Shown here: in pieces, positions 40,018-40,247 of the stretch
Layout of the letters: the number at the start of each line of letters is the position of its first letter
How positions within the stretch are numbered: the first letter of the stretch is position 1
NCBI GenBank assembly: GCA_963760975.1
Contig: CAVXEZ010000015.1
Location: 45,674-109,673 of the forward strand
DNA from: an uncultured Chloroflexia bacterium
GTDB lineage: Bacteria > Chloroflexota > Anaerolineae > Aggregatilineales > Phototrophicaceae
Direction of reading: 5' to 3'
Length of the DNA stretch: 64,000 bases
The notes under the pieces: generated by a model
Database searches by the model: none
Told to the model about the DNA's origin: nothing
What the model saw: the letters and a program-made list of their open reading frames with translations, nothing else
Program-made: the position numbers and the translations under genes

Positions 40018-40054
40018 AAACAAAAACCCCTGCCTCACAAGCGGAGGTCAGGGG
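40018..40054 (-). terminator. Attenuator terminator of the arg leader
   Basis: Minus strand cccctg-a-cctc-cgcttgt-gagg-cagggg followed by tttttgttt. Confidence 0.85.
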
Positions 40055-40092
40055 TCGGGTTCGCGTATTCCGTTGATCTGCTCAGATCGCCG

Positions 40093-40188
40093 CTAACGCA
40101 AAAATCCCGGCATGACCTCTGGGGTCTGCGGGCGACGGCTGCGACGACGACGCGGGCAATTCGGCTCTAGCGCCAGATCGATCAACAT
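40093..40188 (-). CDS. Arginine-rich leader peptide (putative arg attenuator peptide), 31 aa
   Basis: ATG TTG ATC ... CGT CGT CGT CGC AGC CGT CGC ... CGT TAG = MLIDLALEPNCPRRRRSRRPQTPEVMPGFLR*; GAGGA SD about 10 nt upstream. Confidence 0.8.
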   Translation of the reverse strand: MLIDLALEPNCPRRRRSRRPQTPEVMPGFLR

Positions 40189-40218
40189 GGGTTCAAAATC
40201 CTCATCGAAATCGGGTTA

Positions 40219-40247
40219 AGTTTAGACGATTTCACCAAACATGTCAA
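40219..40247 (-). promoter_or_regulatory. sigma70 promoter of the arg operon leader
   Basis: TTGACA (40247-40242), 17 nt, TAAACT (40224-40219). Confidence 0.8.

Follow-up and report, generated by a model that had tools for sequence, protein, structure and literature searches.

The locus described here raises the question of how arginine synthesis is controlled in a bacterium in which no arginine repressor is detected. Arginine biosynthesis is a textbook example of repressor control, exerted by ArgR with its ARG boxes. The window (the whole stretch of DNA that was analysed, 64,000 nucleotides (nt) from the genome of an uncultured Chloroflexia bacterium placed in the Anaerolineae, Chloroflexota) carries argC, argB, argD, argJ, carA and carB on its minus strand, and directly upstream of argC lies a leader with a short upstream open reading frame (uORF) that contains a run of arginine codons and is followed by RNA segments able to pair in alternative ways. 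Every sequence-level defining feature of classical leader-peptide attenuators is present in this leader. The element is best read, with a probability of about 0.85, as a classical ribosome-mediated (leader-peptide) transcription attenuator that would sense Arg-tRNA charging and tune expression of argC-argB-argD-argJ-carA-carB. That the uORF is translated, that ribosomes stall within it and that read-through depends on arginine is inferred from the sequence. The parts of the leader, in the coordinates of the window, are as follows.

40247-40242 and 40224-40219, minus strand: sigma-70-type promoter, TTGACA and TAAACT separated by a 17-nt spacer, 10 of 12 positions matched in a promoter scan
40203-40199, minus strand: Shine-Dalgarno-like GAGGA, 10 nt 5' of the uORF ATG, read from the sequence
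40188 (ATG) to 40093 (end of TAG), minus strand: leader peptide ORF MLIDLALEPNCPRRRRSRRPQTPEVMPGFLR, 31 codons plus TAG, read from the sequence
40152-40132, minus strand: regulatory run CGT CGT CGT CGC (AGC) CGT CGC, six Arg in seven positions, all CGT or CGC
40132-40123, minus strand: segment 1, CCCGCAGACC, the 5' arm of the 1:2 hairpin, its first base being the last base of the final Arg codon
40119-40097, minus strand: segment 2, GAGGUCA..CGGG..UUUGCG, whose partner is segment 1 or segment 3
40065-40044, minus strand: segment 3, CGCGAA..CCCG..UGACCUC, serving as 3' arm in the antiterminator and as 5' arm in the terminator
40056-40025, minus strand, with the U-tract UUUUUGUUU at 40026-40018: intrinsic terminator hairpin CCCCUGaCCUC-loop-GAGGCAGGGG, -19.9 kcal/mol in ViennaRNA

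The uORF begins 30 nt past the -10 element, and the 1:2 hairpin that follows its arginine run (CCCGCAGACC/GGUCAUGCCGGG, 40132-40106) folds at -13.5 kcal/mol in ViennaRNA. Within segment 2, GAGGUCA (40119-40113) is exactly complementary to UGACCUC (40050-40044) in the 5' arm of the terminator, and when segment 1 is masked and segment 4 is absent the 2:3 antiterminator domain is the minimum free energy structure, at -32.1 kcal/mol. The terminator hairpin was overlooked by a simple terminator scanner because of its bulged A, and ViennaRNA folds were used in its place. The promoter, Shine-Dalgarno sequence, uORF, arginine run, 1:2 and 2:3 helices and terminator had all been proposed in a preliminary description of this region; each was recovered at the coordinates given there, and the constrained fold is consistent with its proposal that the antiterminator forms once segment 1 is hidden.

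The proposed mechanism would begin with transcription starting about 25 nt 5' of the 31-codon uORF. If the uORF carries no ribosome, or one that moves fast, either segments 1 and 2 would pair or a ribosome on its way to the TAG would cover segment 2; segment 3 would then be free to pair with segment 4, the terminator would form and RNA polymerase would halt about 100 nt short of argC. A shortage of Arg-tRNA(ICG) would instead stall the ribosome on the CGU/CGC run with a footprint that hides segment 1 and stops short of segment 2, such that segment 2 would pair with segment 3, the terminator would be blocked and the operon would be transcribed. The footprint of a bacterial ribosome reaches about 10-12 nt past the A-site codon and, on the 5' side, 12-15 nt from the P site. 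From a footprint of this size it is predicted that a ribosome held at the end of the Arg run would cover segment 1 and leave segment 2 only just accessible, and that a ribosome at the stop codon would hide the 3' part or the whole of segment 2.

Conservation of the leader was followed outwards from the genus. With the ArgC of the window, argC loci were retrieved from 24 genomes of the same genus and six from other families of the order, and a uORF with 4-6 Arg in seven positions lies upstream of argC in 27 of these 30 relatives, other families of the order included (for example ..PRRRRSRRPQTNEVMPGFLR, ..RRPRRRPQTNPVWQG, ..PRRERRSRPTQMRFETRFCVG and ..PRRPRRRPAPAISGPA, each ending at its stop codon, and ..RRREFRRRPLTNEV..). 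A TTGAC(A/G/T)-17-TAnnnT promoter scoring at least 9 of 12 is found 109-140 nt 5' of the uORF stop in 26 of the 30, and a peptide of 23-39 residues can be read from the first start codon past the promoter in all 30. A covariance model built from 23 genus sequences (R1) recovers the element from 48 of the 151 order genomes sampled, and a broader model applied across the class (R2) detects it 5' of argC(-argB) in other orders of Anaerolineae. Several class-level matches to R2 were discarded, being gene-end terminators, leaders lacking an Arg-run uORF and, in one case, a leader before a probable trpS. A further 28 argC loci were inspected from the rest of the phylum, of which 20 show no Arg-run uORF with terminator. 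The positives fall into three groups: all six genomes of one family in another Chloroflexota class (..ALRLRRPRTNEVRW..), five of them with a -30 kcal/mol terminator; a second Anaerolineae family; and, in a weak version, a third.

The three helices were assessed by pairing and covariation. In the genus alignment, unguided RNAalifold predicts the 1:2 hairpin and the terminator, pairing in the 1:2 and 3:4 helices is 93.9% and drops to 34-54% once the partner is slid, and the 2:3 core is 97.3% paired. In an alignment of 42 diverse leaders (A4), the 1:2 and 3:4 helices are 90.4% paired (33-58% slid), 17 of 22 pairs show a compensatory change and none of 500 shuffles attains the observed values; for the 1:2 hairpin alone, 85.4% of cells are paired and changes on both sides occur in eight of ten pairs. 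The 2:3 helix, which was absent from the model used to align and was tested on its core and GGG/CCC only, is paired in 92.9% of cells against 28-59% slid, with 13 compensated cells. Extended to include GGGAUUUUUGCG with CGCGAA..CCC, it is 64% paired on a MAFFT alignment because the linker aligns poorly. Among all 55 homologous leaders the terminator hairpin folds at -15 to -28 kcal/mol, with at least five T in the next eight bases in 53. In an alignment-free test, an unconstrained duplex search was made in each of the 55 leaders between the 5' arm of the terminator and the whole upstream leader, and in nearly all of them the best partner begins 9-14 nt past the last Arg codon. The sequences that pair differ between lineages and compensate one another, as in GAGGUCA/UGACCUC, GGUCUGG/CCAGACC, GGUUUGG/CCGAACC, CAGGUCAG/CUGACCUG, GAGGUUCG/CGAACCUC, GAAGUUCGG/CCGGACUUC, GGGUCCGG/CCGGACCC and GAGGUCUGG/CCGGACCUC. 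The uORF stop lies 5-10 nt past segment 2 in most of the genus and within segment 2 in several other lineages. Conservation and covariation in dozens of genomes show the argC leader to be more than a chance arrangement.

A search of the genome that carries the window for ArgR (TIGR01529, PF02863) gave no match at a genome completeness of 93.6%, and none of the 151 genomes of the order gave one above cut-off; as a control, the same search detected ArgR in 7-8 of 14 reference genomes. No Rfam family, the His_leader, Trp_leader, Leu_leader, Thr_leader and T-box families included, matched the region meaningfully in a cmscan run with E values up to 10. The hits to sX11, mir-1905 and RAGATH-28 in that scan were set aside as not meaningful; the full-length match to sX11, a Xanthomonas small RNA family (40018-40153, minus strand), scores 20.1 bits with an E value of 0.37 and so falls far below the gathering score of 70. 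A bacterial Arg leader-peptide terminator attenuator was found neither in Rfam 15 nor in a full-text literature search of incomplete coverage, and to our knowledge none has been described. The literature search thus agrees with the preliminary description, which had noted that no such attenuator was characterised, and its interpretation of the locus as an attenuator is supported by the results of each comparative test that it had suggested: the uORF is conserved in relatives, the 1:2, 2:3 and 3:4 helices are all conserved with compensatory changes, and no argR is detected in the genome.

The argC leader is accompanied by others. A second, sequence-diverged Arg leader lies 5' of argG in the same genome (G000:C5:195121-195253, minus strand; L085:2700-2832), with a TTGACT-17-TATCCT promoter and a uORF encoding MIKPVPFYRRIRRSRTVFWFGDVVIG; GUUCGGGG, 11 nt past the last Arg codon, is complementary to the 5' arm of the terminator GACCCCGAAC..UUCGGGGUC plus UUUUUAUUU. 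It was too diverged to be found by the R1 search of this genome, which missed it, and came to light by inspection of the region upstream of argG. An equivalent argG leader is present in about 20 of the 30 relatives with its segments covarying, and in another genus R1 detects a second copy 5' of argG-argH. No such leader lies upstream of argF in the genome of the window. A genome-wide scan for the pattern of an amino-acid-run uORF, a hairpin with T-run and a gene yielded four further candidate loci in this genome, each carrying a TTGAC(A/G)-17-TAnnnT promoter and a terminator.

G000:C13:517548-519314, minus strand (L135): His leader (MRQQHQHHH.., MRQQHQHHHLYRVSRPVLV and stop) 5' of hisH
G000:C11:55108-56879, plus strand (L136): Thr leader (..GMGTTTPH..) 5' of an aspartate kinase gene
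G000:C1:19903-21671, minus strand (L137): Thr-rich leader 5' of an aminotransferase-like gene
G000:C1:73006-74780, plus strand (L140): Tyr/Phe leader (..YRYFYFYYF.., MTTAQTYRYFYFYYF..) 5' of the genes for chorismate mutase AroH and DAHP synthase

Two other loci from the same scan, L138 and L139, were rejected as coding-region artefacts. In one relative (G300; L141:190-345, G300:C1, plus strand) a leader matched by R2 has a uORF encoding MLNVPFKHVNFAAAAQTASLVGIVA with four GCC codons, followed by a terminator and alaS (TIGR00344). This leader aligns over its full length with the argC leaders of its family, the GCC codons for Ala replacing the CGY/CCN run, and shares with them CAGAC..GUCUGG, the GUUGCYUGA stop context and the CCGCCAGAC..GUCUGGCGG terminator. 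The regulatory codons therefore track the amino acid that the next gene serves, while the scaffold stays the same, as is predicted of a sensor of tRNA charging. Given the alaS leader, the presence of distinct leaders at argC and argG(H) and the lack of detected ArgR across the order, it is an even bet that the scaffold of the attenuator works as a module whose target has changed in evolution through replacement of the codon run alone, and that arginine control in the Anaerolineae, together with part of aminoacyl-tRNA synthetase control, would run entirely through RNA switches, duplicated and re-coded, each of which reads how far a specific tRNA is charged (here tRNA-Arg ICG).

A number of points weigh against reading the argC leader as an attenuator. 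The remaining three of the 30 relatives carry degenerate versions of the leader, two of which (L010 and L028) retain three Arg in the run and one of which (L018) has lost the run, and many relatives have a poor Shine-Dalgarno sequence or lack one. The 2:3 core hardly varies within the genus, and the covariation of this helix therefore rests on other genera and families; furthermore, alignments A3 and A4 were fitted to the 1:2 and 3:4 structure, and the relatives share ancestry, so that the genomes are not independent. A stall on the first Arg codons (40152) would leave segment 1 uncovered, and only stalls late in the run are therefore predicted to antiterminate. Finally, given the completeness of the genome, the absence of ArgR is not proven.

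The same features might be explained in other ways. It is conceivable that the leader encodes an arrest peptide that senses free arginine or ornithine, similar to the fungal arginine attenuator peptide (AAP) or SpeFL: at high arginine the growing chain would capture the metabolite inside the exit tunnel, the ribosome would stall at or near the stop, segment 2 would be covered and termination would be favoured. A ribosome held at the stop would indeed mask segment 2 in the same way, and the C-terminal half of the peptide, PQTxEVxxGFLR before the stop, looks conserved within the genus. However, the changes to GFLR in the genus are often non-synonymous, with I, W, S, A and V appearing (GILR, GFWR, GFSR, GALA and GVEA), and the C-terminal conservation is therefore at the RNA level. 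Between families the C-terminal peptide is wholly unrelated (PVWQG, MRFETRFCVG and ISGPA, each before the stop) but the underlying RNA still pairs, which argues against an arrest peptide of either type, and the arginine run, usually followed by Pro, is the only feature of the peptide that families share. Together with the cognate-codon leaders for His, Thr and Tyr/Phe in the same genome, this makes an arrest peptide very unlikely. Slightly less likely still is an attenuator mediated by a protein of the TRAP or PyrR type, in which an RNA-binding protein would read (CGY)n whenever arginine is plentiful, leaving the ORF incidental. The triplets of the run do repeat almost perfectly and keep strictly to CGY: in 50 leaders the codons of the run are 137 CGU, 112 CGC, two CGA, one AGA and no CGG, which is 249 of 252 CGY, compared with 64.5% CGY among the Arg codons in long ORFs of the genome of the window (CGC 49.5%, CGG 20%, CGU 15%, CGA 12%), and without a detected ArgR another sensor of arginine must exist. 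Nevertheless, CGU and CGC are swapped freely between orthologous leaders, and the genome has one tRNA-Arg(ACG) gene; the free exchange fits selection on decoding by one isoacceptor rather than on nucleotide identity. In 50 of 55 leaders a start codon 3' of the conserved promoter opens the frame in which the run is read, and this frame closes at a stop whose distance from segment 2 is conserved; the run is only ever interrupted by complete codons (S, EF, P, N, D). The analysis turned up no candidate for the binding protein. Other cognate-codon leaders occur in the genome of the window, and a scaffold that carries GCC codons before alaS is hard to square with a protein that binds CGY repeats.

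The least probable of these explanations is that there is no switch at all, the element being a constitutive partial terminator or insulator, or a small RNA gene, with a fortuitous GC-rich mini-ORF. Such mini-ORFs do arise by chance in a genome of 62% GC, where at least five Arg in seven occur at seven of 785 terminator-like sites; two of the seven stand 5' of arginine-biosynthesis genes and five are other cases. The sub-threshold match to sX11 points weakly the same way. These observations are outweighed by the conservation, with compensatory changes and across families and classes, of the uORF, the spacing and the mutually exclusive 2:3 helix, and by the specific tie of the element to argC and argG. 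The attenuator sensing Arg-tRNA charging remains the preferred explanation of the argC leader.

The genes that the attenuator would control, and the spacer that separates it from them, are arranged as follows.

40017-39915, minus strand: spacer between terminator and argC, with three small hairpins (40002-39986, 39965-39944, 39941-39927) and the argC Shine-Dalgarno sequence AGGAG (39924-39920)
39914-38904, minus strand: argC, N-acetyl-gamma-glutamyl-phosphate reductase, first gene of the operon (TIGR01850, 357 bits, E 1e-106)
38799-38053, minus strand: argB, acetylglutamate kinase (TIGR00761)
37438-36248, minus strand: argD, acetylornithine aminotransferase
35978-34722, minus strand: argJ, bifunctional ornithine acetyltransferase
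34694-33522, minus strand: carA, carbamoyl-phosphate synthase small subunit
31804-28160, minus strand: carB, carbamoyl-phosphate synthase large subunit

The order along the strand is argC, argB, a small HNH-like ORF, argD, argJ, carA, a GT87-like ORF and carB. On the upstream side a gene for an ABC ATPase runs divergently on the plus strand from 40372, and the leader therefore sits in a genuine intergenic region of 458 nt. The hairpins of the spacer are GCGAAAC-GAA-GUUUCGC, GGGCGAAC-CUGUGU-GUUCGCCC and GCAACC-GAA-GGUUGC; a spacer of this length is seen only in the closest relatives, and elsewhere argC begins within about 25-50 nt of the terminator. The ORF between argB and argD (38018-37428, minus strand) encodes 196 amino acids with a motif resembling that of HNH nucleases, CSACGY..HRHHL..N..LCANCHELHH, and its sole family match, a weak one, is to a model for cytochrome c; the ORF may have entered the arg operon as a mobile or selfish element. 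The ORF between carA and carB (32852-31833, minus strand; 339 amino acids) matches the GT87 glycosyltransferase family with an E value of 2e-8 and is an unexpected passenger gene in the arg/car operon.

If the interpretation is correct, the element would fill a long-standing gap, given that arginine is missing among the leader-peptide-attenuated pathways in Rfam families and in the literature searched. The classical mechanism would then reach arginine in a large and mostly uncultured lineage, the Anaerolineae of the Chloroflexota, that has no detectable ArgR, and would explain feedback on arginine synthesis there. In practical terms the leader would offer synthetic biology a compact, testable sensor of Arg-tRNA charging, and it suggests an annotation rule for many metagenome-assembled genomes, in which the leader genes before argC and argG are unannotated. 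The alaS paralogue would provide a natural example of how the specificity of such a switch is re-coded.

Compared with known systems, the argC leader would share with ArgR/AhrC and their ARG boxes the feedback control of arg and car genes by arginine, but ArgR/AhrC is a DNA-binding protein that acts at promoters, and none was detected in this genome. With the fungal AAP (the arg-2/CPA1 uORF) it has in common a uORF ahead of an arginine-pathway gene, that for carbamoyl-phosphate synthetase in the fungal case, and would have in common expression that responds to arginine. The fungal leader, however, is a eukaryotic one in which a conserved arrest peptide detects free arginine and halts scanning and translation, whereas the argC leader conserves the Arg codon run only and its proposed output is transcription termination. 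The nearest bacterial case is the speF leader of Salmonella, orf34 (speFL), in which low arginine causes the ribosome to pause at consecutive Arg codons and an alternative mRNA structure to form (PMC6386406). That leader has two Arg codons and controls ornithine decarboxylase, for polyamine synthesis rather than arginine biosynthesis, and its output is RNase G sensitivity and Rho-dependent termination, in contrast to the intrinsic terminator/antiterminator switch proposed here (PMC6386406).

The closest likeness in architecture is to the enterobacterial trpL, hisL, leuL, thrL, pheL and ilvL/ivbL attenuators, which similarly have a promoter, a short uORF with a run of cognate codons, 1:2, 2:3 and 3:4 helices and a stop near segment 2, and which likewise stand directly 5' of a biosynthetic operon. 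The argC leader differs from these in that it would sense arginine, belongs to the Anaerolineae (Chloroflexota) and has no match to any Rfam family; furthermore, the trpL stop lies between segments 1 and 2, and that of the argC leader lies after or inside segment 2. Beyond the Proteobacteria, cases of the classical mechanism that comparative genomics has found or backed are the mycobacterial ilvB1 leader with its LVVI codons (PMC13236596) and actinobacterial leader peptides (PMC1262725). Those leaders sense branched-chain amino acids, Trp, Leu and Cys in another phylum (PMC13236596, PMC1262725), and the leader described here would add arginine, in the Chloroflexota, to the amino acids read in this way.

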